Positions 17,294 through 46,640 of a stretch of 64,000 bases of DNA are shown here, one piece after another (position 1 is the stretch's first letter; every line of letters starts with the position of its first letter). The DNA lies in assembly GCF_056746865.1 (NCBI RefSeq), contig NZ_CM163382.1, one strand, 5' to 3'. The position numbers and the translations under genes are program-made. Under the pieces are notes generated by a model. The model was not told the origin of the DNA. It saw only the letters and a list, made by a program, of their open reading frames with translations, and ran no database searches.

Positions 17294-17346
17294 TCGGTAG
17301 GCCGGATCAGGCGTTACGCCGCACCCGGCACTAGGCCCTCTGCACA

Positions 17347-17374
17347 AACGCCACCTTTTCGGTGGCGTTTTTTA
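17347..17374. terminator. Bidirectional intrinsic terminator between rpoD and mug
   Basis: Hairpin aacgccacc tttt cggtggcgtt flanked by T-run on plus strand and A-run upstream; convergent genes on both sides. Confidence 0.7.
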
Positions 17375-17878
17375 TCGCCCACGCACTACCAGCGCCTGGT
17401 CCAGCTCGCGATACGCTTCAACCAGTTTCTCCAGTGAAACGCGACTTAAACCACTGGGATTTGGCAGCACCCAAATCTGCGTCGAACCAATGGTGAGCGT
17501 TTGTTTCCCCCACTGTGCACCGCGCTGGCTGAATCCCTGTTCATATGCTTGTTTGCCCAGAATCGCCAACGCCTGTGGCTGATAATCTTCTATTTTTTCA
17601 ATTAGCTTACGCCCGCCTGCGTGCAGCTCCTGCTTTGAAACTTCATTGGCTTGCACCGTTGGACGGTCTACCAGTTTGGTGACGCCACAACGATAATCCA
17701 GCAGATGCTGTGCCTCCTGCGGCTTCAACTGACGGTCGGTAAACCCGGCCTGATATATCACCTTCCAGAAGCGATTTGCCGGATGAGCAAAGGGAAAACC
17801 AGTCCCGGCGGATGAAAGCCCAGGGTTGATACCGCAAAACACGACCCGTAACCCTGGAGCCAAAATATCCTCAACCAT
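17372..17878 (-). CDS. mug: G/U mismatch-specific DNA glycosylase
   Basis: 168 aa [20 protein letters not shown]... Confidence 0.9.
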
Positions 17879-18002
17879 ATTTACTCCTTTCTAACATCAC
17901 CAGGAAAAGTATAACGGATTGAAAATACATTGTTTATAAAAACAGCAGGCGCGCGGTAATGGCTGGATTGCGACACGGAGTTACTTTATAATCCGCTACC
18001 AT

Positions 18003-18078
18003 GGCCCCTTAGCTCAGTGGTTAGAGCAGGCGACTCATAATCGCTTGGTCGTTGGTTCAAACCCAACAGGGGCCACCA
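18003..18078 (+). tRNA. ileX: tRNA-Ile (anticodon CAU, ileX-like)
   Basis: 76 nt: 7-bp acceptor stem GGCCCCT/AGGGGCC, D-arm, anticodon loop CTCATAA, T-arm GTTGG-TTCAAAC-CCAAC, 3' CCA. Ile2 rather than Met assignment is from memory of ileX and from position after mug. Confidence 0.85.
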
Positions 18079-18089
18079 TACACAACAAA

Positions 18090-18126
18090 GGGTTAGCTAA
18101 TAAACCAGCTAACCCTTTTTCTTTTT
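18090..18126 (+). terminator. Intrinsic terminator after the tRNA
   Basis: Stem gggttagct / agctaaccc with 8-nt loop, followed by tttttcttttt. Confidence 0.6.
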
Positions 18127-18136
18127 CCTTTGAATT

Positions 18137-18159
18137 GGGTCAGGTAATGGGTCAGGTAA
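18137..18159. repeat. Tandem direct repeat (gggtcaggtaa x2)
   Basis: gggtcaggtaa t gggtcaggtaa read directly, between the tRNA terminator and the first island gene. Confidence 0.5.
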
Positions 18160-18176
18160 GCTTTTTTCCATCTGAC

Positions 18177-19022
18177 TCAGATGGCTGATAATTGTCCCGG
18201 ATAACGCTTTGCAATGATGTCATTTAGCCGATCAACCAGTTCTGGTTTTCTGAATGTGATATGCGCGGAGCCCTTCTTAAAGTATCTGATGCTGAACATC
18301 TCATCTTCATAGCTCTCTTTACCCTGAACAGACTGAATGTGCTCATCCAGACGAATAGTGATGTTTTCCCGATTGTCGGGGATTGGTTTACCGCTGAACA
18401 GGTGCAACATTCTTTCCAGATCGGCGAGTCGGTCAGCCTGTTGTCCGGTGATAAGATGAAATCCCCACCGGTCCCATCTCACCAGATTGTTGACGATAAT
18501 TTTACTGCCAAATTTACAGGGGCAATTGGTTTTGTAATTCCAGTTCAGCCCTCTGAAGACGTTGATCACCCCTCGCTCAAACACCTCATCCTTATTCTGG
18601 TGCAGTTGTTCAAATGTGCTCAGGATGTTCGCTTCGCTGATTTCCGGAAAATTATCGTACTCCAGTGACCGGTACCATGTCTCACGGGCCTGTGCATCCA
18701 TTAAGGAAAGCATCCCGGAACGTTGCATCAAGTCACGCCAGATTTCACGATCGAGATTGTGTGTGATGGCTTTCATTGCCGTTTCAGGTTTCTCCATGAG
18801 CCAGCAGCCACAGCGAAAATCCTGTTTCATCGCCCAGTCCAGTGCGGTTTTACCGCCAATACTTTCTGTCATTGCTGAGATTTCAGCCAGTTGCCGGATA
18901 AGTGTGTTGATTTGCAGCAGTGTACTTTTTCGTACAGCCAGAATGTGGCGGATACTGGTTGAGCAGATAACGTCCGTATGCCCGTTGACTACTTCCGGAC
19001 GGGAGGCTGTGATATCAGACAT
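18177..19022 (-). CDS. Conserved hypothetical protein of CP4-type islands (possibly DUF4942 family)
   Basis: 281 aa ORF at the distal end of the cbtA module; family assignment from memory only. Confidence 0.5.
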   Translation of the reverse strand: MSDITASRPEVVNGHTDVICSTSIRHILAVRKSTLLQINTLIRQLAEISAMTESIGGKTALDWAMKQDFRCGCWLMEKPETAMKAITHNLDREIWRDLMQRSGMLSLMDAQARETWYRSLEYDNFPEISEANILSTFEQLHQNKDEVFERGVINVFRGLNWNYKTNCPCKFGSKIIVNNLVRWDRWGFHLITGQQADRLADLERMLHLFSGKPIPDNRENITIRLDEHIQSVQGKESYEDEMFSIRYFKKGSAHITFRKPELVDRLNDIIAKRYPGQLSAI

Positions 19023-19118
19023 AATCGATATTCCTTTTTGCAGATAAATGAAAACGCCAGCCCTGTTCAGGCTGGCGTCAGTGGAATGAAGTCTGGTGAG
19101 TGAGATGATGAGTGAAAC

Positions 19119-19361
19119 TCACCGGTTCGGGGGCTGAAGCTGCAGTTGGCGCAGGGTACGGATATCCTCCCTGGCCTGTTCAATACAGGACAACAGGGCT
19201 GTCGAATCCGTTTTATCCTCATCGTTGTCAAAGATAATTCCGGATTCACAGTCGATATTGTCCTGCAGCCACGCAATCAGAATATCCAGCGCTGTTTCCG
19301 TGGTTAATGATTTCATGTTGTTTCTGGTTACCAGTCGAAAGTGGGTAAATCCGGCAGACAC
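19119..19361 (-). CDS. Small hypothetical protein (80 aa)
   Basis: ORF overlapping the 3' end of the upstream 162-aa ORF by 34 nt in another frame; may be real or a frame remnant. Confidence 0.3.
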   Translation of the reverse strand: MSAGFTHFRLVTRNNMKSLTTETALDILIAWLQDNIDCESGIIFDNDEDKTDSTALLSCIEQAREDIRTLRQLQLQPPNR

Positions 19362-19816
19362 CCGGCGCTGGCATCCAGATGAATAAGACTGACGCCATAA
19401 CGCCGGATGAGAGTGACAACCAGACGGCGGAAGGTTTTTGACAGGCCCAGACGTTTAAGGTGTAGCACCGGATACGACAAAGCATCGGTACGTAACAGAT
19501 ACCCTCTGCCTGTAAAATGAATCCATTCTGATTCGCCGGTGTCATTCGTCTGATGCGACAGCGAGTACAGCCAGGTGTTGTCCGTTTCCGTGATATGTGC
19601 GGTACTGCAGCGTATGCCGGTAAGGGCAGCAAATGGTGGCGTGCAGTCTGCTGAGGTCCGGTCAGATTCATCAACAACACGAAGGGAGTAGCCGTTATCG
19701 CAGATCATGTTAATCAGTTCAGCGAGATTAACACCATCAATGTCAACGACAATTCGCCCCATATTCAGTGCCTGTACGTTAACGCTGTCGGCTTCCAGTG
19801 TCAGGGTCAGTTGCAT
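19328..19816 (-). CDS. Hypothetical protein (YeeW-like position), translationally coupled to cbtA
   Basis: 162 aa; its ATG overlaps the cbtA stop codon (19807-19816), suggesting co-translation. Confidence 0.5.
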
Positions 19817-20190
19817 CGTTTCGACTCCTGATGCTTACCCAGGGTAATGTTATTTACCGTTCTGTAATTGTCGCGGGTCATCAGGCCGGTTGCCCGGCGA
19901 GCCCGGAGAATATCAATACTGTTTATTAACTGAGAGCGGGTACAGGCGCTGAATCCCGGCTGGTCGGTACGTACCAGTGCGTATTTTTCAACGAGAAAGT
20001 TCACCGCATCGCACAGTGAAATGCCTGCCTCAATATGCTGCTCAATCACACGTTCATCAGCGAACGGTGTGTCATTCAGCGTAAGGCCGTAATGCTGGTC
20101 CAGCAGTCGGGTGAGCAGTGTCTGCCAGATTTCAACCGGAGACGGGCGTGAACTGGCCGCCTGCCCGGGTAATACAGGTAATGTTTTCAT
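19807..20190 (-). CDS. cbtA: CbtA (YeeV) family cytoskeleton-binding toxin
   Basis: 127 aa from internal Met [23 protein letters not shown]... (the track ORF has a 47-aa upstream extension); matches remembered CbtA/YeeV. Confidence 0.85.
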
Positions 20191-20279
20191 ACTGAAGATT
20201 TTCCTGATATGCAGAGATGAAAAATGGAAAAGTGGCGTGGTGAAAGCACCAGGCCGGAGCAGAAGGTTATTCTGGATAG

Positions 20280-20648
20280 TTACCTTTTCGTTTCGGGCGT
20301 CGGATAAACAGCCATATAAACGTAGCCACAACTGCCGAGGGTGTCGGCTTCGCAGGTCAGCCCTTTTGCATACAGCGTGACGGTATGCTGATGGCGGGAA
20401 TTCAGTTCACCGCTGGTGAGCATGAGTTCCAGTTGTTTCATCAGCAGCGGAAAGGCCTGGTCCAGGTGGTACGAATCCGCGTCGCTGAACCGGCCTCTGA
20501 TACCGGCGCGGTCGGCAAGGTAATGCAACCGGTTGCCCTCCTGCACCAGACGGGCGCCAAAACAAGGTGTCACGGTACAGGGCAGCCCCCACCAGGGGCG
20601 GTCGTGATTGTCATCGGGATGCGTTGTCCCGGGCAGTGTGTCTGACAC
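20280..20648 (-). CDS. cbeA: CbeA (YeeU) family antitoxin
   Basis: 122 aa [49 protein letters not shown]..., immediately upstream of cbtA. Confidence 0.85.
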
Positions 20649-20727
20649 AATAAAATCCTCACAGAAAATTGGTTAAGAATGGTCCGGTGGTGGCGATAAT
20701 TCTGCTCTTCTGAATGCCCTTCCGGAC

Positions 20728-20949
20728 TCAGTTCAGGGTGACGCTCATCAGCCGGACATACGGACCAAAACTGTCCTTACGGCGTTCTGCAAACACAGCC
20801 AGCACACCGGGAATATCCTGCACTTCACGGCCGGTATATGTATCCGTGCTACCGTGCCAGCGGTATTTGCCGGTACAGAACGGAAAAAGACGGGATGCCG
20901 GATGTTGTTGGTGAATACGCATGGCTTCACCACGGGTGATGATTTTCAT
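20728..20949 (-). CDS. yeeT: YeeT-like protein (DUF987)
   Basis: 73 aa, position between yeeS and cbeA as in CP4-44. Confidence 0.75.
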   Translation of the reverse strand: MKIITRGEAMRIHQQHPASRLFPFCTGKYRWHGSTDTYTGREVQDIPGVLAVFAERRKDSFGPYVRLMSVTLN

Positions 20950-21017
20950 GGTGTGATACCTCTTAAGACAGAAGATAAAAGTGAAAACAGGTGTGATGTG
21001 GTGGTGACGGTGACGGG

Positions 21018-21494
21018 TTAAAGCAGACCGTGTTCCGCAAAGGAGAAAACCTGGCTGCCACCGACTATCAGATGGTCCGGTACCCGGATATCCACCAGGC
21101 CCAGTGCCTGTACCAGACGTTCCGTGATAAGGCGGTCTGCCTTGCTGGGTGTGACTTCACCGGACGGGTGATTGTGTGCCAGCACCACGGCAGCGGCATT
21201 GTGGTACAGGGCACGTTTAATCACTTCCCGGGGATGGACTTCCGTGCGGTTGATGGTGCCGGTGAAGAGGGTTTCACCGGCAATCAGCTGATTCTGGTTG
21301 TTCAGATACAGCACCCGGAACTCTTCCCGCTCCAGTCCCGCCATGTTCAGAATCAGCCACTCCCGTGCCGCATGCGTGGAGGTGAAGGCCACGCCGGGTT
21401 CATGAAGATGGCGGTCCAGGGTTTTCAGGGCCCGCTGAATGAGGCTGCGCTCGCCGGGCGTCATCTCTCCGGGCAGAAAAGAAAGCTGTTGCAT
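21018..21494 (-). CDS. yeeS: RadC-like JAB-domain protein (YeeS family)
   Basis: 158 aa with HNHPSG metalloprotease-like motif. Confidence 0.8.
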   Translation of the reverse strand: MQQLSFLPGEMTPGERSLIQRALKTLDRHLHEPGVAFTSTHAAREWLILNMAGLEREEFRVLYLNNQNQLIAGETLFTGTINRTEVHPREVIKRALYHNAAAVVLAHNHPSGEVTPSKADRLITERLVQALGLVDIRVPDHLIVGGSQVFSFAEHGLL

Positions 21495-21508
21495 TGTTCC
21501 GGCCCCTT

Positions 21509-21994
21509 TCAGTCAATGATGCGCATAATGGCGTTGCATTCCGGATGCTGCAGGGCGTAATCCCGCAGCCGGTAATAATGGACCGTCATGGCATAACACT
21601 CCGTACGACAGGCATGATGGCTGTACGTCATCAGACAGGCAGCAATGCCGGCGGCTTCCGGGCTCATTTCAGCGCGGTTACCGTTCATGGCACTGAACAG
21701 TACCCATGTTTCGTCATCATCGTCATCCGGTTCGGGTGCCATAAATGCCCCGCCGTTGTTCAGGGTGTACAGATTCCAGATACCACCACAGTAGTCTTCG
21801 CACAGACGATCCATCCAGCCGAAGACACGGGGCTCCAGGGTCACCCACTGTGGAATGAGGCCAAAATGCTGCGGCCAGAAGCTGATGCGCTGTTCATCAG
21901 GGACGAGGGTGGCAACCAGTTGAGGCGGGTTATTCTCTGATACAGCGGTTACGGAAACAGAAGGTGTGGTGGAATTATGCAAAACGGTTGTCAT
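21509..21994 (-). CDS. Antirestriction protein (ArdB/KlcA-like, YfjX-type)
   Basis: 161 aa with acidic stretch (EPDDDDDE); position and size typical of antirestriction proteins in CP4-type islands; assignment from memory. Confidence 0.6.
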   Translation of the reverse strand: MTTVLHNSTTPSVSVTAVSENNPPQLVATLVPDEQRISFWPQHFGLIPQWVTLEPRVFGWMDRLCEDYCGGIWNLYTLNNGGAFMAPEPDDDDDETWVLFSAMNGNRAEMSPEAAGIAACLMTYSHHACRTECYAMTVHYYRLRDYALQHPECNAIMRIID

Positions 21995-22084
21995 GAGATT
22001 ATTCCTTATAAAAAGTAAATGAATGGAAGAAGTCGCGGGGCAGGGACGGACATGAGTCAGAACTGCGCTTTCAGGGAAAAGGCA

Positions 22085-22903
22085 TCAGCGCATACTCTTC
22101 AGCAGTGTTTCTGCCATCACCCACAATGCGCGATTGAGCTTAATGTCGGTGTCGATGCTGTGAATGGCACGGGTATGGATACGTTTTCCTCTGGCACTGC
22201 GACCGGAAATCCCGCCTTTCAGCATATTCTCCTGGATGGTCTGATAAGCACTCCACAGGTCCTTACCGTAATCCTCCCGGCGTCGCGGTGTCAGAATGTC
22301 AGCAGCGGTGACGGGCTGATGTTCGTCACCATAACGGTAAGTCAGTGCCGCCTGTGCCAGCGCCTGGCGTGCCGGTGGCGGCAGGACCAGCGACTGCATG
22401 GCATCACGCTTCTCCTCAATCCGGTCAAAAACCCCCACCACCTCGTAAGCCCCTTCGATAACTTTCTCCACTACGTCTCCCCGGTGTGGAACACGCACTT
22501 CCCCCAGAGACTGACCACAGACGCATCCGTTCTGGCAGACGAACCTGAAGTAACCCGGCAGCATCTGGTAGCTGGAGGTACCGTCATGGGAGTTCAGCAG
22601 GATGATTTCAGGGACATGTTGTCCGTTTATCTCCCCGTCACGGCGCAGACGCAGCATGTGTTTGGTGTATCCCCGGCGGCCCGGGTCGCGCACGCGGGTC
22701 TGGCAGGCGAAGAATGGCTGGAAGCCTTCCCGCTGCAGGCTTTCCAGCACGGTGATGGTGGGGATCCAGGTATAGTTCTCGCTTCTGGATGTGTGTTTCT
22801 CTTCCCCGAATACGCTGGGGACGACCTGCATCAGTTCTTCACGGGTTAAGGGGCGGTCACGGCGTATCTGGTTCGCATAACCAAAACGACTGGCTAATCG
22901 CAT
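22085..22903 (-). CDS. DUF932-family protein (YafZ/YfjQ-like)
   Basis: 272 aa; conserved partner gene of CP4-type islands. Confidence 0.55.
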   Translation of the reverse strand: MRLASRFGYANQIRRDRPLTREELMQVVPSVFGEEKHTSRSENYTWIPTITVLESLQREGFQPFFACQTRVRDPGRRGYTKHMLRLRRDGEINGQHVPEIILLNSHDGTSSYQMLPGYFRFVCQNGCVCGQSLGEVRVPHRGDVVEKVIEGAYEVVGVFDRIEEKRDAMQSLVLPPPARQALAQAALTYRYGDEHQPVTAADILTPRRREDYGKDLWSAYQTIQENMLKGGISGRSARGKRIHTRAIHSIDTDIKLNRALWVMAETLLKSMR

Positions 22904-23175
22904 GATTTATTCCTTATGAATGAGTTAGCGGTGTAAATGAAAAAGCCGCGTCTCCCGGAGAAGACGCGGCCTGATGGACGAAATGAATGACGTTTATTGT
23001 CTGAGAAGCCCTTCACTGGCGAGCTGCGTATTTTTATGGAAGGAGATCACCCAATAACCCCATCGGGATCGGGCAATAACCGGCCAAATTGTGAACGATT
23101 CAGATGCCATTTGGCAGCAAAAGAGCCTTCGGCAATAAACGTGATGTACAACCCGGCATATCTGTTGCTCCCTGA

Positions 23176-23207
23176 AAGTAAAAAGCCCCGGTCATTATGA
23201 CCGGGGC
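23176..23207 (-). terminator. Intrinsic terminator after flu (agn43)
   Basis: Minus-strand hairpin gccccggtca/tgaccggggc (loop taa) followed by U-run (plus-strand aaaaa at 23180-23184), 20 nt after the flu stop. Confidence 0.5.
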
Positions 23208-23229
23208 CTGAAGGGGAGTGACCTGATTA

Positions 23230-26076
23230 TCAGAAAGTCACATTCAGCGTGGCCTGACCGTTATAGCCTTCAGCGCTGTTGCCGCTGACACTGTGGGCAT
23301 AACCGGCCTGAACGCCCAGAGTGATATTTTCCCGGACACGGGCTTCCAGTCCGGCCTGCAGGTCCAGTGACGTGCCATTCTGTGACGGTGAGAACGTCAT
23401 GTTACTGCCGGCTTCAGCTGTACCCATGCTCATGTCACCCCGGGAGCTGAAAGTGCGGATAACAGAAGGCTGTACCCACCAGTTCACCGGCAGTTCACTC
23501 ACACGGTGTTTTGTACTGTCGCGCAGAGTGTCACGGGATGAGGTGCCTTCGCCAAAGGTCATATCGTTGTGGCTGCCCAGACGGAAGCCGGCACGCACAT
23601 GTTGTGTACTGCCATGCCCGAACTTCACATAACCGGCGTTATCCTGGCCGTCATCCAGGGAGAGCCCCTGCCAGGTGTACTGCAGTTGTGGCTCCAGCAT
23701 CAGGTTGTCAGTGATACTGAAGGGCAGACCGGTTTCCAGTGAGCCCAGCCAGCCCCAGCCCCGGGCGCGGAAGTCGTTATTGTCCGATGACGCTTTCATG
23801 CTGTGGCGGGTTCCCTGTGCCACAATGTCAGCCCACAGGCCGGAGGACGTGTGTGTCAGATTCAGGTATCCGCCCAGGCTGCCGGCATCATCCCGGACTG
23901 TGCCGGCGCGGGAACCGTCATCATCCTTAACATCAACGGAAGAATGACCTGCAGCACCATACACCCCTGTCGTCAGAGACATACCTGCAACCTCTGTTCT
24001 CAGCAGGTCACCCTCCAGACGGACGAAGCCATAGCTGCCGCTGCTTTCCGGCGTGGCTCCACGGGCAATACCGCCGTTGTTATCGTGACCGAGATGACCG
24101 CCCTGAATGCTGAGACGGACGCTGTTATTTTCACCGTTTACACCGGTCTGATGGCTGCGGGAGCCTGCCAGAATCCGGTCATAGTCCATTGCCTGTGTCA
24201 GCATGGAGGCATACAGGGGGACTTCAGCACGATAAGCATTTTCACTGCGCAGGTACCAGTCTTCATCGCTGTCACGGTTCAGGGTGTAGTTAAAGGCACC
24301 GGCCTGAAGCGGGCGACTCAGGGCAAACGCACCTTCTTCTGTGGTGGCACCATTCTGTGCATCCACAACCCGGATACCCTGTCCGGAGGTTGCCACCCCG
24401 AGGTTACTGTTTCCGACATTTGTGAACGCAAGCCAGGTTTTGCCGGTTGCCTGACCACCATTAATCACCAGCTGGTCAGAGGCATTGCTGCCATCAAGGC
24501 GAACACGCATATTGATGGTGCCACCCTGACCGGTGAGGTTACTGGTTGTCAGTTTATGGAACGTTACCGGGGCGTTGCCTTTTGCAACAGCACGGCTCAG
24601 TATGGCATCCGGTGTTGTCTGATTGTCAAAGTAAATCTCCCCTGCGTTAACAATATCGCCGGTACTGACCACATCACCATTCAGTACCATGCTGGCGCCT
24701 TTACTGAGCTGTGTTCTGCCACTCAGACTTCCCCCGGCAGCCAGCATCAGTGTTCCACGATGTCCGACAGTGGTGTTGCCAGCCTGTCCCCCGGCATTAA
24801 CCGTAAAGCTGCCGCCATTTTCCAGCAGCAGGCCGCTGGCCTGACCGGATATGCCATCAATACTGAACTTACCGCTGGCATTGGTCCCCTCAACAGTGGC
24901 ACCACTGTCTGCAATCAGGGCACCACCGGATGTCATGGTGACACCTGTCGCCTTACCACCGGCAGACACTGCCAGGGTTCCGCCGTCATCCACCCGTGTT
25001 TTCTGCGCTGAATGGCCCTCCAGTACATCCAGGCGACCGCCGGACTCCAGAACAACACCGTCAGCCTTACCGTTTTCCACCGTGAAATTCCCCAGACGGT
25101 TGCTGCCGGTGACGGTTGCCGCCGTACTGGTGACCAGTGCGCCGCCCTGCTTCAGGGTGACATTCGTGGCTGTACCACCGGCGTTCACCTGCAGTTTGCC
25201 TTTCTGGTTAACGGTGGAGAAATCCGCCAGACCACCTTCCTTGATAATCTGCCAGCCGTCACTGTTTACAACAGTGCCAGACGCCGTACCGCCGTTGTGC
25301 ACATACTGGTACCCCCCATTCAGCGTGGTATCCAGTGCGTGACCATGTACAGTCTGGTCGCCGCCGGCATAAACCACAGTGGTATTTGCCGTTCCTTCAG
25401 CAGCCACAATCTGACGACCATTTTTATTGATGGTGGTGCGTACGGCATCTCCGTAGACGGTCTGCCCGGTATCACCATTTTCTGCATCCGGTCCCCCTTC
25501 CGCGCCGGTATTCACAACCGTGTCGGTTGCCATTGCGCCGGATTTGACGGCCTGCCAGCCCTTCTCATTAATGACGGTACCCGTTGCAATCCCGCCTTCA
25601 TGTATCCACTGCTCACCGCCGTTCAGAGTGGTGTTCACTGCCTGCCCCTGAAGGCTCTGTCCGCCTCCGGCACTGATAACCGTGTCTGAAACGCTTCCTC
25701 CGGCATTCACTCTCTGAAGACCACCACCGGTGACAGTAGTGTTGTTGGCGGTACCGCCATTTTGTATCCATTGGCCGCCGGTATTCGCCTCGTTATCCGG
25801 CCCATACTCCAGCCCGGTACTGATGGTCATTCCGTTGGCCGTACCGAAGACAATCTGGTTGTCATGATTTGTCAGTGTTCCGCCGCTCACGGTTTCTCCC
25901 GCCTGTACGACCGTGTCAGCAGCCAGTACCGGGACTGACGTGACAGCAGCAAGAGACAGCGCAACCGCCACACCGGTGCGTTTTCCCCGTGAGCGCGCCA
26001 GTTCGGAAGCCACCACCAGGGTGCCCGTAATGTGATTCCATACCAGCCTGTAGCTGGTGTTCAGATGTCGTTTCAT
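23230..26076 (-). CDS. flu: Antigen 43 self-associating autotransporter adhesin
   Basis: 948 aa from Met MKRHLNTSYRLVWNH... (26th codon of the track ORF); long signal peptide, repetitive passenger domain, C-terminal beta-barrel ending NVTF. Confidence 0.88.
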   Translation of the reverse strand: MKRHLNTSYRLVWNHITGTLVVASELARSRGKRTGVAVALSLAAVTSVPVLAADTVVQAGETVSGGTLTNHDNQIVFGTANGMTISTGLEYGPDNEANTGGQWIQNGGTANNTTVTGGGLQRVNAGGSVSDTVISAGGGQSLQGQAVNTTLNGGEQWIHEGGIATGTVINEKGWQAVKSGAMATDTVVNTGAEGGPDAENGDTGQTVYGDAVRTTINKNGRQIVAAEGTANTTVVYAGGDQTVHGHALDTTLNGGYQYVHNGGTASGTVVNSDGWQIIKEGGLADFSTVNQKGKLQVNAGGTATNVTLKQGGALVTSTAATVTGSNRLGNFTVENGKADGVVLESGGRLDVLEGHSAQKTRVDDGGTLAVSAGGKATGVTMTSGGALIADSGATVEGTNASGKFSIDGISGQASGLLLENGGSFTVNAGGQAGNTTVGHRGTLMLAAGGSLSGRTQLSKGASMVLNGDVVSTGDIVNAGEIYFDNQTTPDAILSRAVAKGNAPVTFHKLTTSNLTGQGGTINMRVRLDGSNASDQLVINGGQATGKTWLAFTNVGNSNLGVATSGQGIRVVDAQNGATTEEGAFALSRPLQAGAFNYTLNRDSDEDWYLRSENAYRAEVPLYASMLTQAMDYDRILAGSRSHQTGVNGENNSVRLSIQGGHLGHDNNGGIARGATPESSGSYGFVRLEGDLLRTEVAGMSLTTGVYGAAGHSSVDVKDDDGSRAGTVRDDAGSLGGYLNLTHTSSGLWADIVAQGTRHSMKASSDNNDFRARGWGWLGSLETGLPFSITDNLMLEPQLQYTWQGLSLDDGQDNAGYVKFGHGSTQHVRAGFRLGSHNDMTFGEGTSSRDTLRDSTKHRVSELPVNWWVQPSVIRTFSSRGDMSMGTAEAGSNMTFSPSQNGTSLDLQAGLEARVRENITLGVQAGYAHSVSGNSAEGYNGQATLNVTF

Positions 26077-26293
26077 CAGCTTTTCCTTACAGAGGGTGAA
26101 TAAAAAAGCCGGTACCCACAAATGTGGATACCGGCAGGTACAAAACAGCATGGTCAGATAAAGTGGTTTTTCCCGGACATAAATGCTTCCCCTCTCTCAT
26201 CCGCCAGAGAAGTATCAGTCCGTTGTGTGCAATTCCGTTCTGCATGATGAAGAGATTCAACTGCCTTTTCGCAGGCCATTAACCACTATAAAC

Positions 26294-26329
26294 GATCGAT
26301 AGTAACGATCGATACCTGTTTTATTGATC
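26294..26329 (-). promoter_or_regulatory. agn43 phase-variation switch region (three Dam GATC sites, presumed OxyR operator)
   Basis: GATC at 26294-26297, 26307-26310 and 26326-26329 within 36 bp, about 220-250 bp upstream of the flu ATG. Confidence 0.65.
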
Positions 26330-26448
26330 GTTTTATTCTATTGATTGCAAGGCGGTCACGCAAGAGAAACAGGAGGATCATGAGGTGTTTGTGTCATGTT
26401 TTCAGTTGGTTAACGCAATGTAATCAGGCATTTCCCCTGGCAGACTGT

Positions 26449-27321
26449 TCAGAAGAAAATCCAGTTCCATACAGCGCGGGCAACAGAGACCACCGAGTCA
26501 CGGACGGCACGCAGAACCGTGCGTGCAACAGAGGCAATACAGACGCTCTCCGCCGTGTCAAATATCCGGTCCACCGCACCGGTAAACTGTTCACGGGCCT
26601 GAGACCGGACAGATTCCGTGCGCAGCTCGTCCTGCAGGCGGGTCATCAGGGGACTGGCGGCATGGTCGGGAAGCGCTGTCATGAGCGCACTGACCAGCGT
26701 ATCCAGTTCCCAGCCGGTGCAGGCCGATACGGCCACAACCGGATGTACGGGTCGGAACAGCCGGAATACCGCATCTGTTTTCTCACGAATGTTCTGTGCC
26801 TGTGCGGGAGAAGGCTGAATGCCGGCCATATCCCATTCATGGCAGGGCTCCGTTTTGTCGGCCTGCGTCACCACAAACAGTACCCGCTGATGTCCCCGGT
26901 GCAGGATGTGTCGCCAGAAATACTCATCCACAGACAGGGCACGGTCATCGGCTTTAATCAGCCACAGTACCAGGTCAAGTTCAGGCAGAATGTTACGGTA
27001 CAGGGCTTCATACTCTGCATCCCTGTCCCGGCTCTCGCCCACCCCGGGCAGGTCAGTGATAATCATGCTGTGACCGTGGCCACTCAGACGGAAGCGCTGC
27101 ACTTCCCGGGTGCCGGCGTGAACATCACTGACCGGTGTGACTTCCCCCTGAAACAGCGCATTACAGAGTGAGGATTTACCGGCCCCGCTTTTACCCATAA
27201 TGCCAATCACGGGTTCGTGGCTGGTGAGTTTACGCAGATGTTCCAGGATGTGACGGGAAAGCGAATAAGGCAGGGAGGAGAGCGGTTTTTCAATTGCCTC
27301 AATGGCATCAGACGGATTCAT
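26449..27321 (-). CDS. YeeP/YfjP/YkfA-family GTPase
   Basis: P-loop GIMGKSGAGKSS and DxxG (TDLPGVGE); start taken at MNPSDAIEAI (14th codon of the track ORF). Confidence 0.75.
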   Translation of the reverse strand: MNPSDAIEAIEKPLSSLPYSLSRHILEHLRKLTSHEPVIGIMGKSGAGKSSLCNALFQGEVTPVSDVHAGTREVQRFRLSGHGHSMIITDLPGVGESRDRDAEYEALYRNILPELDLVLWLIKADDRALSVDEYFWRHILHRGHQRVLFVVTQADKTEPCHEWDMAGIQPSPAQAQNIREKTDAVFRLFRPVHPVVAVSACTGWELDTLVSALMTALPDHAASPLMTRLQDELRTESVRSQAREQFTGAVDRIFDTAESVCIASVARTVLRAVRDSVVSVARAVWNWIFF

Positions 27322-27584
27322 ATATGTATTCCCGGTGAAAAAAGACAAAACCCCGCGCACCGGAAAGGTGGCGGGGGATTCACGGAGATAATATCTGTCT
27401 GAAATTATTTAGAATGCACCTGGTGCACTGCAAAGGAAAGGCAGTATTCCGTTCCTCCTCCTTGTCGTGAATACCCCAGGTATCTCACAATGTACACCGA
27501 CTTACTCCGGGGCTGCCTGAACCACAAGATTGCTGTAGAATTGCCCCCAATGATTCAGGTCCAAACCAGGCAAATGGATTAAAA

Positions 27585-29141
27585 ATGACAAGTATTCAAC
27601 AACGAGCAGAACTGCACCGCCAGATATGGCAAATTGCCAATGATGTCAGAGGTTCTGTTGACGGATGGGATTTTAAGCAATACGTTCTGGGCGCACTTTT
27701 CTACCGTTTTATCAGCGAAAATTTTTCCAGTTATATTGAAGCCGGTGATGACAGTATCTGTTATGCGAAACTGGATGACAGCGTAATTACTGATGACATT
27801 AAAGACGATGCCATCAAAACTAAAGGCTACTTCATCTACCCCAGTCAGCTTTTCTGCAACGTAGCGGCGAAAGCAAATACTAATGACAGGCTGAATGCAG
27901 ATTTAAACAGCATCTTCGTTGCTATCGAAAGTTCTGCTTACGGTTATCCTTCAGAAGCTGACATCAAAGGTTTGTTTGCTGATTTCGATACCACCAGTAA
28001 CCGCCTGGGTAACACCGTTAAGGATAAAAATGCCCGCCTGGCTGCGGTTCTGAAAGGGGTTGAAGGGTTAAAACTTGGTGACTTCAACGAACATCAGATT
28101 GACCTGTTCGGTGATGCCTATGAGTTCCTGATTTCTAACTATGCGGCAAATGCCGGTAAGTCAGGCGGTGAGTTCTTTACACCGCAGCACGTCTCCAGGC
28201 TGATTGCACAACTGGCTATGCACGGGCAGACCAGCGTTAACAAAATCTACGACCCGGCAGCGGGTTCCGGCTCACTGTTGTTGCAGGCGAAAAAACAGTT
28301 TGATAACCACATCATCGAAGAAGGCTTTTTCGGTCAGGAAATCAACCATACGACCTATAACCTGGCGCGTATGAACATGTTTTTGCACAACATCAACTAC
28401 GACAAGTTTGATATCAAGCTGGGTAATACACTGACTGAGCCACACTTCAGAGATGAAAAACCGTTTGATGCCATCGTTTCTAACCCGCCGTATTCGGTGA
28501 AATGGATTGGCAGCGATGACCCGACGCTGATTAACGATGAACGTTTTGCCCCGGCTGGCGTTCTGGCCCCCAAATCAAAAGCTGACTTCGCCTTTGTACT
28601 ACATGCGCTGAACTATCTTTCTGCCAAAGGTCGCGCCGCGATTGTCTGCTTCCCGGGTATTTTTTACCGTGGCGGCGCGGAGCAGAAAATCCGTCAGTAT
28701 CTGGTCGATAATAACTATGTCGAAACCGTGATTTCACTGGCACCGAACCTGTTCTTTGGCACCACCATTGCCGTCAATATTCTGGTGCTGTCTAAACATA
28801 AAACGGATACCAAAGTTCAGTTTATTGACGCCAGCGAACTGTTCAAAAAAGAGACTAATAACAACATCCTGACCGATGCTCATATCGAACAGATTATGCA
28901 GGTATTTGCCGGCAAGGAAGATGTTGCTCATCTGGCGAAATCTGTCACGTTTGAGACTGTTGTCGCGAATGACTATAACCTGTCGGTGAGCAGCTATGTG
29001 GAAGCGAAAGATAACCGCGAAGTGGTGGACATTGCTCAGCTCAACGCCGAGCTGAAATCTACTGTCGCCAGGATTGACCAGCTTCGCAGGGATATTGATG
29101 CCATCGTCGCTGAAATTGAAGGCGAGGAGCAGGAGGCATGA
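27585..29141 (+). CDS. hsdM: Type I restriction-modification system, N6-adenine DNA methyltransferase subunit
   Basis: 518 aa; AdoMet motif [10 protein letters not shown] and catalytic NPPY ([11 protein letters not shown]); N-terminal HsdM domain. Confidence 0.92.
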
Positions 29142-30343
29142 GTAGCGTGAACTTCTTGGAAAAGCTGTTGGATGGCGTTGAGGTCGAGTGGAAGACACTT
29201 GGGCAAACTTGCAAAATTGAAACAGGAAAGCTTAATGCGAATGCGGCTGTTGATGATGGAGAGTATATGTTCTTCACGACAGCCAAAGAGACAAGCAAAA
29301 TTGATAAATTCCGCTGGGATACAGAGGCATTGCTGATTGCAGGCAATGCGAATGTTGGTGAGGTGAAGCATTACATCGGCAAGTTTGAGGCTTATCAGCG
29401 CACCTATGTTCTGACAAATTTCGACGAAAATGTAAGTGTTAGATTTTTGTATTTTGTGCTTAGCCATAGCCTGAAGAAATATCTCGAGGAAAGAACAAAT
29501 AGCGCGGCAATGACATATATCGTGCTATCAACCTTAGAGAATTTCCCTATCCCCATCCCCTGCCCAGGCAACCCCCAAAAATCCCTTGCCATCCAGTCTG
29601 AAATCGTTCGGATTCTGGATAAATTTACTGCACTTACCGCTGAGCTTACCGCTGAGCTTAACATGCGTAAAAAACAGTACAACTACTATCGCGACCAGTT
29701 GTTGAGTTTTAAAGAGGGTGAGGTTGAGTGGAAGACTTTGGGGGAAATTGGAGATTTTACATATGGATATGCAGCCAAAGCCATGGATTCAGGAGATGCC
29801 CGTTTCGTGAGAATTACTGACATAAATAAAGACGGGAAGCTATCGAAAGAAAACCCAATGTACGTTGAATTAAATGAGGAAAATGAGAAATATACCTTAG
29901 ACAAAAATGATTTACTCATGGCAAGAACTGGGGCAACCTTTGGTAAAACAATGATTTTTGAAGAAGATTATCCAGCAGTATACGCTGGTTTTTTAATAAA
30001 GTTGAACCTAAATAAAACGATTATTAATGCCAAATATTACTGGCACTTTGCACAAAGTGATTTTTTTTGGGAACAGGCTAATAAATTAGTATCTGGTGGT
30101 GGGCAACCACAGTTTAATGCTAATGCACTGAAACAAGTCAGAGTACCTATTCCATACCCATCTCACCCTCAAAAATCTTTAGACGAACAGGGGCGTATTG
30201 TGGATATTCTGGATAAGTTTGATGCAATCGCAGCTTCCATCACCGAAGGTCTCCCGCGTGAAATCGAGTTACGTCAAAAACAATACGAATACTATCGTGA
30301 TTTACTGCTCAGTTTCCCAAAACCTGAAACTGTCAGTAAATAA
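29138..30343 (+). CDS. hsdS: Type I R-M specificity subunit (type IC architecture)
   Basis: 401 aa; ATG overlaps hsdM stop; two variable recognition domains separated by a conserved central region with TAELTAEL and conserved distal region ([24 protein letters not shown]). Confidence 0.9.
29633..29656 (+). repeat. 12-bp tandem repeat cttaccgctgag x2 in hsdS (TAEL x2)
   Basis: Two perfect tandem copies plus a 4-nt partial third (ctta), read directly; encodes LTAELTAEL in the HsdS central spacer. Confidence 0.9.
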
Positions 30344-30464
30344 TTGACCATTGCTACCGACCGGGCCTCCTTAACATCCGGTCAGTATATAGACTATTTT
30401 TTACGCGCCGGAAGTCACTCTTAACGCCCTTCCGGCTCTTGCCAGGCGGCACAAAGGATGCGCT

Positions 30465-33400
30465 ATGACTCATCAAACACACACCATTGCTGAATCCAAT
30501 AACTTTATCGTCCTTGATAAGTACATCAAAGCTGAGCAAACAAGCGACAGCTACCAGAGCGAATCGGACCTGGAACGTGAACTGATTCAGGACCTGCGGA
30601 ATCAGGGTTATGAATTTATTTCCGTAAAATCACAGTCGGCAATGCTGTCTAATGTTCGGGAACAGCTTCAGAGCCTCAATGGTGTGATGTTTAATGACAG
30701 CGAGTGGCGGCGCTTCACGGAGCAGTATCTGGACAACCCCAGCGATGGTATTCTGGATAAAACCCGTAAAATCCATATCGACTATATCTGCGACTTTATT
30801 TTTGACGACGGGCGACTTGAGAACATCTATTTGATAGATAAAAAGAATCTCATGCGCAATAAGGTGCAGATTATCCAGCAGTTTGAACAGACGGGTTCTC
30901 ATGCTAACCGTTATGACGTCACGATCCTGGTTAATGGTTTACCGCTGGTGCAAATCGAACTAAAAAAACGCGGGGTGGCGATTCGTGAGGCTTTCAACCA
31001 GATACATCGTTACAGTAAAGAGAGTTTTAACAGCGAAAATTCCCTGTTTAAGTATCTGCAACTGTTTGTCATTTCTAACGGCACCGATACCCGTTATTTT
31101 GCCAACACGACAAAGCGCGATAAAAACAGTTTTGACTTCACCATGAATTGGGCGAAATCAGACAACACGCTGATTAAAGACCTCAAAGACTTTACCGCTA
31201 CCTTTTTCCAGAAACATACTCTGCTGAATGTTCTGGTGAACTACAGCGTTTTTGACAGTAGTCAGACGCTACTGGTGATGCGACCGTACCAGATTGCCGC
31301 CACCGAGCGCATTCTGTGGAAAATTAAGAGTTCCTTTACAGCGAAGAACTGGTCAAAACCGGAAAGCGGTGGGTATATCTGGCACACTACCGGTTCTGGT
31401 AAAACCCTCACCAGCTTTAAAGCCGCGCGTCTGGCAACAGAGCTGGACTTTATTGATAAAGTCTTCTTTGTGGTCGACAGGAAAGACCTCGATTACCAGA
31501 CCATGAAGGAATATCAGCGTTTTTCGCCAGACAGCGTCAACGGCTCGGAAAATACCGCAGGCCTTAAACGAAATCTGGATAAGGACGATAACAAAATTAT
31601 CGTCACTACTATTCAGAAACTCAATAACCTGATGAAAGCAGAAAGCGACCTGCCTGTATATAATCAGCAAGTGGTGTTTATATTTGATGAATGCCACCGC
31701 AGCCAGTTTGGAGAAGCGCAGAAAAACCTGAAGAAGAAATTCAAACGCTATTATCAGTTTGGTTTTACCGGCACCCCTATTTTCCCGGAAAACGCCTTAG
31801 GCTCAGAAACAACCGCCAGCGTATTTGGCCGTGAATTGCATTCGTATGTGATTACCGATGCGATTCGTGACGAAAAAGTGCTCAAATTCAAGGTGGACTA
31901 CAACGATGTGCGGCCACAGTTTAAGTCTTTAGAGACAGAAACTGACGAGAAAAAACTGAGTGCGGCTGAAAATCAGCAGGCGTTTCTTCACCCCATGCGT
32001 ATTCAGGAAATCACGCAATATATCCTGAATAATTTCCGCCAGAAAACCCACCGTACTTTCCCTGGTTCCAAAGGTTTTAATGCCATGCTGGCAGTAAGCA
32101 GCGTGGATGCTGCAAAAGCCTATTATGCGACGTTTAAACGGTTACAAGAGGAAGCCGCTAATAAATCTGTAACTTATAAACCGCTGCGTGTTGCGACAAT
32201 CTTCTCCTTTGCCGCTAATGAAGAACAAAATGCCATTGGTGAAATTTCCGATGAAACTTTTGATACCAGCGCAATGGACAGCAGTGCTAAAGAGTTTCTT
32301 GACGCTGCAATTCGTGAGTATAACAGCTATTTTAAAACTAACTTCAGCACCGACGGTAACGGTTTTCAGAACTACTATCGTGATTTAGCCCAACGGGTTA
32401 AAAATCAGGATATCGATCTGTTAATTGTCGTGGGAATGTTTTTAACCGGCTTCGATGCTCCAACATTAAACACGCTATTCGTCGATAAAAACTTGCGTTT
32501 TCACGGCCTGATGCAGGCATTCTCCCGCACCAACCGCATTTATGACGCGACTAAAACCTTCGGTAATATTGTCACGTTCCGGGATCTGGAACGCTCAACC
32601 ATTGATGCCATAACGCTGTTTGGTGATAAAAATACCAAAAATGTGGTTTTAGAAAAGAGTTATGCAGAGTATATGGAAGGCTTTACTGATGCTGCCACTG
32701 GTGAAGCTAAACGCGGCTTCATGACAGTAGTTTCAGAACTGGAACAACGGTTCCCTGACCCTACCAGTATTGAAAGTGAAAAAGAGAAGAAAGACTTCGT
32801 TAAACTGTTTGGCGAATACCTGCGTGCCGAGAATATCCTGCAAAACTATGATGAATTTGCCACGCTAAAAGCCCTGCAACAAATCGATCTTAGCGATCCT
32901 GTTGCGGTAGAAAAATTCAAAGCAGAACATTATGTGGATGATGAAAAGTTCGCTGAATTGCAAACAATTCGTCTCCCTGCTGATCGCAAGATTCAGGATT
33001 ATCGTTCTGCCTATAACGATATTCGCGACTGGCAGCGCCGTGAGAAAGAAGCTGAGAAAAAAGAGAAATCAACCACTGACTGGGATGACGTAGTTTTTGA
33101 GGTCGATTTGCTGAAGTCTCAGGAAATAAACCTGGATTATATCCTTGGACTGATTTTCGAACACAACAGACAAAATAAAGGCAAGGGCGAAATGATCGAA
33201 GAGGTCAAACGCTTAATTCGTTCAAGCCTGGGGAACCGTGCTAAAGAGGGCCTGGTGGTCGATTTTATTCAGCAAACGAACCTGGATGATTTACCGGACA
33301 AAGCCAGCATCATTGACGCATTCTTTACGTTTGCTCAACGCGAACAGCAACGTGAAGCAGAAGCCTTGATCAAAGAAGAAAATCTCAATGAAGAGGCGGC

Positions 33401-33581
33401 GAAACGCTATATTCGCACATCTTTAAAACGCGAATACGCCACCGAAAATGGCACGGAATTAAACGAGACACTGCCCAGACTCAGTCCTTTAAATCCGCAA
33501 TATAAAACGAAAAAACAGACTGTTTTTCAAAAAATTAGCGCATTTATTGAAAAATTTAAGGGGGTGGGTGGAAAGATTTAG
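30465..33581 (+). CDS. hsdR: Type I R-M restriction endonuclease/helicase subunit
   Basis: 1038 aa; helicase motif I (TGSGKT) and DEAD-like box ([12 protein letters not shown]); length and sequence recall EcoR124I HsdR. Confidence 0.92.
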
Positions 33582-33731
33582 GGAAGGTGCGAATAAGCAG
33601 GTCATTTCTTCCCAAGCTGACTCGCTGATTAAAATTTCGCGGATCTGGGCCGATTTTTTTCCCGCAAACACATCGAATCGGCCTGTTTAGGCTATTTTTT
33701 CCACCATTTCTGGCGTTATTTCCGGTTTTTA

Positions 33732-36015
<2,284 letters not shown>

Positions 36016-36184
36016 TCAGGAACTTGTTCGCACCTTCCCTAAAAAAAGCAGATGATTTTCATTATTATCGCAGGATAATTGTGCGCATATTTTCCATGCG
36101 GATAAGAATACTTATTCATGGAAATAATAATTTCCAGGTCATCAAGTGAAATCTGTTAACGCAAAGAGTGTTCCACCCTGCCCC

Positions 36185-36715
36185 TCACACCATCTCAAGT
36201 TTTACCGCGTCATAACCACACTGAACCAAACATTCACCGCAACCATTACATATTGCAGCATCGATTACAGGCATTCCGCTTTCGTTGATTGAGCATGCCT
36301 GAAGTGGGCATAGATCGACACACTGTTTGCAACTGCGCACCGGATTAACACAATTTGCTTTAAAAACGGGACGCAATCCGGTGTCGAAACGAGCCTGCGG
36401 ACGTAATGCCTCAGTGGAACATGCAGCTATACATAAGCCGCAGCCGTCACAACTGGCAAATTCAATCACCAATTGCGGATAGCCATCTTCATGCCGGTTG
36501 AGAATGCCCATGGGACAGGCATTAATACACAAATCACACTGCGTGCACTGCACACGAAACTGCGCATCAGGTAACGCGCCGGGAGGTAAGGAGTGCACAG
36601 GTAATATCGGTGTTGTTACCGGGCGTGCCGCGCTGACAAAGGCCCGAAATAGCCCACGTCGGCTAACATACCGATGAGACATTAACTCCTGATAATAATT
36701 TTCTGACTTACTCAT
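36185..36715 (-). CDS. Ferredoxin-type protein with multiple 4Fe-4S motifs (NapF-like)
   Basis: Several CxxCxxCxxxCP motifs; start taken at MSKSENYYQ... whose ATG overlaps the upstream chaperone stop (ATGA). Confidence 0.65.
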   Translation of the reverse strand: MSKSENYYQELMSHRYVSRRGLFRAFVSAARPVTTPILPVHSLPPGALPDAQFRVQCTQCDLCINACPMGILNRHEDGYPQLVIEFASCDGCGLCIAACSTEALRPQARFDTGLRPVFKANCVNPVRSCKQCVDLCPLQACSINESGMPVIDAAICNGCGECLVQCGYDAVKLEMV

Positions 36716-37308
36716 CCAAGAAAGAGCCGTTTGGTTGGAGGATTTAGTGCCTGTTGCTGCTGATAATCCTGCAGAAACAGTGTCGCAATCTGCGCCAACT
36801 TCGCGTAAAACGCACTGACAGGGTTGCGCTGTAATAACTCCAGATAACGATATCCCCACGGCAGCAAATGCGTTTCCAGCAATTGATTCGCTGCGCGTTC
36901 TTTCCCCTCTGCCAGCAAGGCGCTACAGGCAAGCAGCATCAGGCCAAACTGATCTTCCGGTTCATTTATACAGGAATCAAACGTCATTCCCTGATCACGA
37001 AGGAACTTCCGGTACTCGGCAGTGCTGTCCCCCATCAACAGATTATCTTTTTCGAGATATACCGAACCCCAGGGTGGTGCTGGCATTTCACCCTGTCCTT
37101 CAAAAAGAACAGAAAATTGCCAGAGATGCTGCTCCTCATCCGGGATTGACCAGTCAGAGCATAATTCAGCCACCTGGCGGGGATCGCGCCAGGGGTATAT
37201 CTCATCCAATGTCGGCAGACAGTCAAACAGTGCCCGAACTTCAGGACGCGTGGGAGAATAGTAAAACAGGGCACCAAGAATACGCACCAGTACGGCTGGG
37301 GAAGGCAT
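36712..37308 (-). CDS. TorD/DmsD-family redox enzyme maturation chaperone
   Basis: About 199 aa from MPSPAVLVRILGALFYY...; position after the membrane anchor as in dms/ynf operons. Confidence 0.6.
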   Translation of the reverse strand: MPSPAVLVRILGALFYYSPTRPEVRALFDCLPTLDEIYPWRDPRQVAELCSDWSIPDEEQHLWQFSVLFEGQGEMPAPPWGSVYLEKDNLLMGDSTAEYRKFLRDQGMTFDSCINEPEDQFGLMLLACSALLAEGKERAANQLLETHLLPWGYRYLELLQRNPVSAFYAKLAQIATLFLQDYQQQQALNPPTKRLFLG

Positions 37309-37362
37309 GATTAAACACTCCTGAAAGCAGAGGTGGCCGGGCAAACACCGGCCACTCACAGG

Positions 37363-38139
37363 TTACATAGGGATGGTCCAGAGGTTGTAGAAACCGATCC
37401 GACCAACCAGTTCAGCAGCAATAACCACCAGTGCAGTCATCGCCAGCACAGCTTGCCCACTTTTCATGCGTGCATAGAGCAGTGCCCCAATAACACCCAG
37501 CGCCAACAGAATGGCCTGAGCGGTAAACCAGGTGGACTGCGCAGCGGTAATAACGCCATCAGCACTCATTAGCGTGGAAATATAACCCGGACGCAAACAG
37601 AAACTCGCCAGAATCGCCAGTACACTTACCAGCAGCCCCAGACGACGAACGCCAAACAACGCCGCCAACATGCCGCCACCGATAAGTGCAGTTAGCACCA
37701 TCATCATGGTGGTGTAAGAGGTACTCCAGGTCGCTACCGTTGCCAACTGGTAAATACGCGGGATGGCAAAGATAAACACGACTCCAATCGCAGCGGCCAG
37801 CCATACCAGTACTTTACAAAGCATTGCACCACCGCGATTTAACAGCAAACCGAGAGATCCCAGTCCTCCGGCTGCGGCAAAACATGCCGAAAGCACGATT
37901 TCGTTACTCATAGGAGAACTGCCGACACGGAATAGCATATTCAGCGCTCGCAGCGGCTGCCCGACATGAATGGTGCCAAGCACAACACCCACACCAAACA
38001 AGCACATCACCGAAAAGAGACCAATCGCCATACGACGTGGCTCAATTAATCCCATGGCACCGCCAATCAGCAGCAGAATAAACGCCCCCACTGCGCTCTG
38101 GGTAAATACGGTGAAAAAGACCAGTGGTAACTCATGCAT
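37363..38139 (-). CDS. DmsC-like membrane anchor subunit
   Basis: 258 aa, eight predicted hydrophobic segments; overlaps the B-subunit stop by 8 nt. Confidence 0.75.
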   Translation of the reverse strand: MHELPLVFFTVFTQSAVGAFILLLIGGAMGLIEPRRMAIGLFSVMCLFGVGVVLGTIHVGQPLRALNMLFRVGSSPMSNEIVLSACFAAAGGLGSLGLLLNRGGAMLCKVLVWLAAAIGVVFIFAIPRIYQLATVATWSTSYTTMMMVLTALIGGGMLAALFGVRRLGLLVSVLAILASFCLRPGYISTLMSADGVITAAQSTWFTAQAILLALGVIGALLYARMKSGQAVLAMTALVVIAAELVGRIGFYNLWTIPM

Positions 38140-38758: not shown

Positions 38759-38771
38759 TGCGGATCACTCC

Positions 38772-41301: not shown

Positions 41302-41413
41302 GTGAGATTTGGTGCTTAGCACAAATATAAATATTTGTGATCATTATCAAAATGTAAATGATAACGCATCTTTATTATCATTTGAGATTAAATATCACGC
41401 AGCGTTAATCTAA

Positions 41414-43870
<2,457 letters not shown>

Positions 43871-46630: not shown

Positions 46631-46640
46631 CTCTTTCCCC

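Follow-up and report, generated by a model that had tools for sequence, protein, structure and literature searches.

A conserved CP4-type accessory module at the tRNA-side end of a genomic island in the ileX gene of Escherichia coli

Gene content and limits of the module

The window analysed here, a 64,000-nucleotide stretch of contig NZ_CM163382.1 (RefSeq assembly GCF_056746865.1), is Escherichia coli chromosome: positions 17300–27500 are 99.9% identical to E. coli CFSAN061769, and some part of this segment is matched in 5425 of 5426 complete genomes. Positions 19807–22903 hold six intact genes, all on the minus strand, of the kind known from the K-12 elements CP4-44, CP4-57 and CP4-6. These are the putative type IV toxin gene cbtA (19807–20190; PF06755, E = 4.4e-59), the antitoxin gene cbeA/yeeU with a GTG start (20280–20648; PF06154, E = 7.9e-55), the DUF987 gene yeeT (20728–20949; PF06174, E = 9.3e-39), a gene for a RadC-like JAB protein, yeeS (21018–21494; PF04002, E = 1.3e-44), an ArdB-type antirestriction gene (21509–21994; PF03230, E = 5.6e-37) and a DUF932 gene (22085–22903; Pfam match above threshold). 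All six scored far above the curated Pfam cut-offs (E-values 1e-37 to 1e-59), which confirms the gene list of the original prediction, made from the sequence alone, for this interval.

The interval, which spans from the cbtA stop to the DUF932 start codon, covers six of the 11 genes of a module that occupies approximately 18177–27417 and in which all genes (18177–27321) are on the minus strand. Three of the others, missed by the original prediction, lie on the tRNA side: a DUF5983 gene (19328–19816; PF25638 and PF19419), which is a full-length yeeW and overlaps the cbtA stop by 10 bases, a gene for a small DUF957 protein (19119–19316) and a DUF4942 gene (18177–19022; PF13708, E = 7.6e-69), the last of the module. 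On the opposite side, a flu-like gene for an Ag43/Cah-family autotransporter adhesin (23230–26076; Pfam ESPR, AIDA, AC_1 and Autotransporter) is followed by an intact GTPase gene of the YeeP/YfjP/YkfA type (26449–27321; MMR_HSR1), the first gene of the conserved module. Genes flu and yeeP had been predicted in this order, which stands, and within 19807–22903, which does not, as both lie outside it. Pfam supports four of the five genes beyond the interval. The exception is the DUF957 reading frame, which had no match in the Pfam copy used and whose name rests on the RefSeq annotation of a 99.9%-identical record. NCBIfam named only the RadC and GTPase proteins of the module.

Outward from the tRNA gene, the order is DUF4942, DUF957, DUF5983, cbtA, cbeA, DUF987, RadC-like JAB, antirestriction, DUF932, Ag43/Cah autotransporter and GTPase. 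The module had been described as oriented away from the tRNA, which is true of this listing but not of transcription, which runs towards ileX. Followed from its other end, the co-oriented series GTPase, DUF932, ArdB, RadC, DUF987, antitoxin, toxin is the gene order of modules of the CP4-44/CP4-57/CP4-6 type. From DUF932 to DUF957 no gap exceeds 90 bases and the closest neighbours overlap by 10, which fits one or a few transcription units.

On the tRNA side, homology to the module reaches as far as the DUF4942 gene end, near 18200; on the other side it breaks off near 27417 in most genomes, approximately 96 bp upstream of where the GTPase gene starts. Of 5426 complete E. coli genomes, 2591 had a place that covered 80% or more of a 10.2-kb query, with a median of five places per genome among those with any match to this query. 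It should be noted that the module is genuine but unremarkable: it is already known, very common and annotated in RefSeq, and earlier work has described modules of related islands at ileX (PMC5539235; PMC7545054).

The core genes rpsU, dnaG, rpoD and mug end at 17878 and are followed by ileX (18003–18078, plus strand), which ARAGORN labelled as Met(CAT), Rfam as tRNA, and RefSeq and K-12 annotation as tRNA-Ile, with the anticodon CAU. In K-12, nfeF directly follows ileX. The 3' half of the window copy carries paired T-arm changes (GTTGG..CCAAC, against GCTGG..CCAGC in K-12) and is island-derived. The native 3' half was located in the related strain 165, which is 100% identical to the window over 44000–64000: there it lies approximately 57 kb away (locus L005, 46457–46503), followed by its native terminator and nfeF, and a tyrosine integrase gene starts 200 bases from it. 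Comparison with K-12 ileX and strain 165 places the attL core in the 3' part of the window ileX (18032–18078, plus strand), and this core and the displaced native half form an attL/attR pair of the kind commonly seen with islands integrated in tRNA genes. In addition, a tandem pair of GGGTCAGGTAA begins 59 bases past the tRNA gene (18137–18159, plus strand; exact matches at 18137 and 18149) and recurs between integrase gene and attR in strain 165 (L005 46307–46329; matches at 46307 and 46319); these pairs are probably arm-type binding sites of the integrase. Since an attL/attR pair and paired GGGTCAGGTAA mark both ends, the module would be the true terminal segment of the island on its tRNA (attL) side. 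Of these direct repeats only attL is within the window; attR and the integrase gene were seen in the related strain (L005), and the integrase end of the island in our sequence lies past the window end. In the gap that separates ileX from the DUF4942 gene, the terminator scan gave a hairpin that is terminator-like on both strands (18087–18118), as a consensus match only.

Taken as a whole, we consider it very probable that the genes at 19807–22903 belong to a conserved accessory module that forms the attL end of an island integrated in E. coli ileX, and that this module serves the establishment and retention of the island and not a phage.

Proteins encoded by the module

As proposed with the original prediction, the window proteins were compared with the gene sets of K-12 CP4-44, CP4-57 and CP4-6, to which the K-12 identities given here refer. 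Every shared gene gave 49–99% identity; low similarity to the yee, yfj and ykf families was not found. CbtA (197.8 bits against PF06755, cut-off 25) is 96% identical to the CbtA of CP4-44 and CbeA (184.1 bits against PF06154) is 92% identical to its CP4-44 counterpart; the antitoxin also matches the solved YeeU structures 2INW and 2H28, and its gene lies just upstream of cbtA on the same strand, with an 89-base gap. The window toxin keeps both R15 and F65, the residues for binding of MreB and FtsZ, respectively, which separate the two interactions (PMC5624674). By analogy with the 96%-identical K-12 protein, for which the mechanism was shown, the pair would be a type IV toxin-antitoxin system whose toxin inhibits FtsZ and MreB. 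The cbtA copy in the CP4-44 locus of strain 1585m1 (L008) is frameshifted. The DUF5983 protein is 71% identical to the truncated YeeW of K-12, and the DUF987 protein 94.5% identical to YeeT of CP4-44.

The RadC-like protein (151.4 bits against PF04002) is 98.6% identical to YeeS of CP4-44 and 78% to YfjY/LfgB of CP4-57. It was aligned to PDB 2QLC, and its translation contains an intact HNHPSGEVTPSKAD metal-site motif (HxH-x7-S-xx-D), which makes it a predicted metal-dependent hydrolase. A role with nucleic acids has been proposed for RadC-like proteins (PMC5512222), and LfgB, the CP4-57 orthologue, was reported as a protease that cleaves MqsA and protects against H2O2 (PMC10846083). The latter report, together with the lowered oxidative-stress resistance that followed deletion of three K-12 toxin genes (PMC5371832), gives rise to another reading of the whole block, namely a host-adopted stress operon in which the RadC-like protease degrades the antitoxin MqsA and so frees RpoS, the toxin-antitoxin pair modulates oxidative-stress survival and biofilm, and the island functions are vestigial. 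We regard this joint reading as unlikely, although it has more in its favour than the other alternatives below. Both reports concern K-12 paralogues and come from single laboratories, and the variable presence of the module, its median of five places per genome and the frameshifted cbtA of L008 fit accessory island genes better. It is, moreover, compatible with a role in island establishment and retention, the two not being exclusive.

The antirestriction protein (126.2 bits against PF03230, cut-off 25) has a near relative of solved structure, PDB 2WJ9 (E = 9e-98), which we take to be ArdB (ORF14) of pathogenicity island II of E. coli CFT073. Only four of 138 positions differ in the core (residues 24–161; 97% identity), whereas the N-terminal 23 residues are different. 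Similarity extends to KlcA of IncP-1 plasmids, which belongs to the same Pfam family (2KMG; E = 5e-20), and identities with the CP4-57 and CP4-6 counterparts are 74% and 72%. The CFT073 protein relieved restriction in vivo by EcoKI 710-fold, EcoAI 54-fold, EcoR124I 199-fold and StySBLI 1174-fold, thus covering types IA to ID, with little anti-modification (factors of 1.3–6, the value for EcoR124I being 1.3; PMC2836571), and for ArdB of R64 an in vivo inhibition of EcoR124II has likewise been described (PMC10149784). By analogy with its 97%-identical relative, the window ArdB would block type I cleavage without blocking modification.

The DUF932 protein is 75% identical to its CP4-57 and 76% to its CP4-6 counterpart, and belongs to a very large family (5362 clusters at 50% identity). 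Across 93 diverse members P29, C123, N125, H140 and G230 are invariant, which may be a hint of a catalytic or metal site but is no proof of one; the predicted structure is confident, yet no solved structural relative was found. The stand-alone DUF4942 protein matches a phage family labelled 'DNA methyltransferase' (PHROG 6263, positions 73–287 of 548, E = 4.8e-18) and could act as an accessory or recognition domain for a methyltransferase; a sequence search gave no solved relative.

The slot between the GTPase and DUF932 genes is variable. In the window it is occupied by the Ag43 gene, whose product is 71% identical to K-12 Flu; another locus (L007) has Cah plus dynamin-like, RdcB and patatin-like genes there, L008 has the latter three without Cah, and in CP4-57 and CP4-6 the slot is empty. 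The leader and regulatory region of the window flu gene (26095–26331, minus strand) matches Rfam RF00124 'IS102' with 74 bits and corresponds to the isrC region of K-12. Phase variation of agn43 is a Dam/OxyR switch, and the three GATC sites found within 36 bases upstream of the window Ag43 gene (26294–26329, minus strand) are comparable with those upstream of K-12 agn43.

The type IC restriction-modification system and other cargo

Directly past the module boundary, on the plus strand, lies a type I restriction-modification system (27585–33581), which had been predicted to be complete and proved so: hsdM (27585–29141), hsdS (29138–30343) and hsdR (30465–33581) encode proteins of 518, 401 and 1038 amino acids, HsdS having two specificity domains. 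HsdR aligns with the HsdR of EcoR124I (2W00) over residues 1–1038 with 2273 bits and carries the EcoR124_C domain (PF12008, 243 bits), and HsdM aligns with the M subunit of EcoR124II with 1132 bits. HsdS shows two Methylase_S stretches and the conserved N-terminal, central (TAELTAEL, i.e. two TAEL repeats) and C-terminal regions typical of the family, but both of its target-recognition domains differ from those of EcoR124 HsdS. We therefore predict a complete type IC (EcoR124-family) system with a new recognition sequence; given the two TAEL repeats, this would be bipartite, with a spacer of 6 bases. Compared with EcoR124I/II of plasmid R124, HsdR and HsdM are full-length and near-identical and the conserved regions of HsdS are shared, whereas the R124 systems are plasmid-borne with other recognition domains and the window system is chromosomal, inside an island. 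Among three strains with this locus, HsdM and HsdR are 97–99.5% identical, and HsdS just 39–43%. Such divergence of hsdS beside conserved hsdM and hsdR commonly marks a working system whose specificity is being swapped, and may be read so here.

The original prediction saw in the antirestriction gene, a few kb from this system, a pair of separately acquired modules for offence and defence. A separate origin, with hsdMSR as lower-GC cargo, is supported by the GC content (0.41–0.47 for the hsd genes against 0.50–0.59 for ten of the 11 module genes, with DUF4942 at 0.476 as the exception), by the breakpoint near 27417 and by the wide carriage of hsd on plasmids: the same system was found on at least 1116 plasmids from several genera, and this hsdR is present in 1323 E. 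coli genomes, with 859 places on chromosomes and 663 on plasmids. The contrast of offence and defence holds less well. Since the 97%-identical ArdB of CFT073 blocks EcoR124I in vivo, the island would carry an inhibitor of its own restriction family, a relation that the original prediction did not mention.

A junction between ileX and DUF4942 is present in 444 genomes and one between the GTPase gene and hsdM in 431, so that module and hsdMSR probably now travel together as one island lineage, the overlap of the two sets being unproven. One could go further and suppose a functional coupling, in which ArdB, on entry, holds off both the resident and the island's own EcoR124-type endonuclease while methylation proceeds and the host survives. 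The activities of the CFT073 and R64 proteins against EcoR124 enzymes speak for this, as do the 431 GTPase–hsdM junctions, set against 859 chromosomal places of hsdR, and their closeness to the 444 at ileX. However, near-equal junction counts are what a single ancestral insertion, passed on by descent, would give, most genomes carry the module without this hsd, and more than 1000 plasmids have hsd but not the full module. The two modules also differ in GC content and are divergently oriented, 5.6 kb apart, with the Ag43 and GTPase genes between them, and enzymes of the EcoR124 family have their own restriction control via HsdR assembly. We consider such a coupling doubtful. Were it true, ArdB would be a built-in establishment factor, and antirestriction gene and restriction system a functional pair. 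Whatever the case, an island with a type IC system and a predicted inhibitor of that family offers a simple genetic test of ArdB expression from an island.

Further cargo was observed to the right of hsdR. A 2464-base direct repeat (33576–36039 and 41408–43871; 99.6% identity) composed of parts of ISKpn26 and ISEc31 flanks an operon of the DMSO/selenate-reductase family (36185–41207), and most of this arrangement was found in just 13 genomes. Each repeat copy contains a full-length match to Rfam RF01387 'isrC' (35583–35705 and 43415–43537); these were rejected as equivalents of K-12 isrC, as blastn showed no relation. The segment 43554–64000 carries metabolic cargo, with lutABC-like genes, dld and an L-lactate permease gene, and further right genes for a carbohydrate porin, a family 32 glycoside hydrolase, an MFS transporter and an alpha-galactosidase. 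A group II intron (52026–53639; Rfam Intron_gpII, ltrA-type reading frame) is situated within an IS3-family remnant, and a match to the ALIL pseudoknot (54639–54755) lies near it.

Role of the module and comparison with known elements

Outside islands, the relatives of the module point to conjugative elements. Genes related to the window DUF932 gene (66–70% nucleotide identity) occur on at least 5000 plasmids, 4445 of which were typed as conjugative. On the IncF plasmid pSaT040 the DUF932 protein is 64% identical to that of the window, and its gene lies in the leading region, with a transglycosylase gene by traM on one side and hok, psiB, a parB-like gene and ssb on the other; DUF932 genes are typical of this region in conjugative plasmids. 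Leading regions are enriched in antirestriction, toxin-antitoxin and methyltransferase genes (PMC11541004). The window module shares with leading-region anti-defence islands an antirestriction gene, a toxin-antitoxin pair, a methyltransferase-associated domain and DUF932, all co-oriented, but it differs from them in that it stands in a chromosomal island by an att site, without ssb or psiB. In content, it resembles a leading-region island.

We propose the following course of events. A tyrosine recombinase would have integrated the island into the 3' end of the tRNA-Ile gene ileX, bringing with it a co-oriented module that CP4-44, CP4-57, CP4-6 and many pathogenicity islands share, with various integrases and cargo. 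The ileX integrase is just 24% identical to IntA and IntF, which argues that islands with distant recombinases share this module. The module, which we read as a conjugative-element-type set for establishment and retention, would first help to set up the island, with ArdB blocking type I cleavage but not modification, and then help to keep it, CbtA/CbeA presumably contributing to this retention.

Several observations weigh against this proposal. The ardB genes on the K-12 chromosome evidently leave EcoKI uninhibited during normal growth, and the module may therefore usually be silent. A promoter scan gave no site before the module block, and its total was lower than that for shuffled sequence. 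The spacer between the Ag43 and DUF932 genes (22904–23229, minus strand) folds much better than shuffled sequence (z = -4.2) and contains two terminator-like hairpins, at 23183–23209 and 22943–22972. The second of these (minus strand), rich in G+C and followed by a T run, stands just 40 bases before the DUF932 start; it was found by terminator scan, alignment and RNA folding, and hairpins with different stem sequences occupy the same position in CP4-57 and CP4-6. Furthermore, genes of the ssb and psiB types, hallmarks of leading regions, are absent from 18177–27417, and neither a relaxase gene nor an oriT is annotated in the related island, no oriT search having been run. As none of the four was seen, we do not file the module as a member of the leading-region class, and transfer of the island as single-stranded DNA is unproven.

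That the block is instead a decayed prophage remnant with leftover phage functions appears highly improbable: K-12 annotation labels the three homologous regions as cryptic prophages, PHROGs families exist for several module proteins, and the far end of the related island has AlpA-like and inovirus Gp2-family genes beside its integrase gene, but the island has no annotated gene for capsid, tail, terminase or lysis functions, the nearest DUF932 relatives outside islands sit in conjugative plasmids, and we rejected this origin on finding a single match to the block, an unannotated 3.2-kb fragment, among 50,697 phage records.

As a discovery, the establishment and retention module carries little weight, since approximately half of the complete E. 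coli genomes have it, the K-12 copies have long been studied and the structure of an almost identical ArdB is already solved. The intact window copy is, nevertheless, a better reference for the ancestral module than K-12 CP4-44, and DUF932 stands out as a family common to an island module and an IncF leading region and without a solved structural relative.

Among known elements, CP4-44 (yeeP-isrC-flu-yeeR-yeeS-yeeT-cbeA-cbtA-yeeW) shares the gene order, with YeeP, YeeS, YeeT, CbeA and CbtA 92–99% identical (the GTPase being 98% identical to the yeeP pseudogene fragment of K-12 and 49–50% to YfjP/YkfA), Flu in the same position and a yeeP–flu spacer of the same Rfam family. In K-12, however, CP4-44 sits at cobU/yeeA, has truncated yeeP and yeeW, and has neither DUF4942, nor an integrase, nor a tRNA junction, whereas the window copy is intact and at ileX. 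CP4-44 of K-12 has also lost the DUF932 and ArdB genes: there is no counterpart of window positions 21470–23187, and yeeR is found instead. Since the CP4-44 locus of strain 1585m1 (L008) keeps both the antirestriction and the DUF932 gene, the K-12 element is the degraded form. The match to CP4-44/CP4-57-type elements in the original prediction holds for the gene families, but the order it gave is a composite, as K-12 CP4-44 is without ArdB and DUF932, and CP4-57 and CP4-6 are without flu.

CP4-6 at thrW (ykfI-yafW-ykfH-ykfG-yafX ... yafZ-ykfA ... intF) has the same succession of tRNA gene, toxin end, cargo and far-end integrase as proposed for the island in the window, the toxin end is likewise transcribed towards the tRNA gene, and ArdB (YafX) and DUF932 (YafZ) genes are present. 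It differs in the tRNA gene used, in its integrase (24% identity), in its proteins (49–83% identical) and in the adjoining GTPase and DUF932 genes with no Ag43 gene between them. In CP4-57 at ssrA (yfjP-yfjQ ... lfgA/yfjX-lfgB/yfjY-ypjJ-yfjZ-ypjF), the families and their order are those of the window and the counterparts from yfjX to ypjF (yfjXY-ypjJ-yfjZF) were reported as one operon (PMC10846083), but the orientation to the att site is opposite, with the integrase by ssrA and the toxin at the far end, and identities are 50–78%. Just upstream of its GTPase gene, CP4-57 has the defence cargo abpAB and rnlAB, at the place where the window has hsdMSR. By these comparisons, the nearest known relatives of the module are CP4-44 in sequence, CP4-6 in topology and CP4-57 in carrying defence cargo upstream of the GTPase gene.

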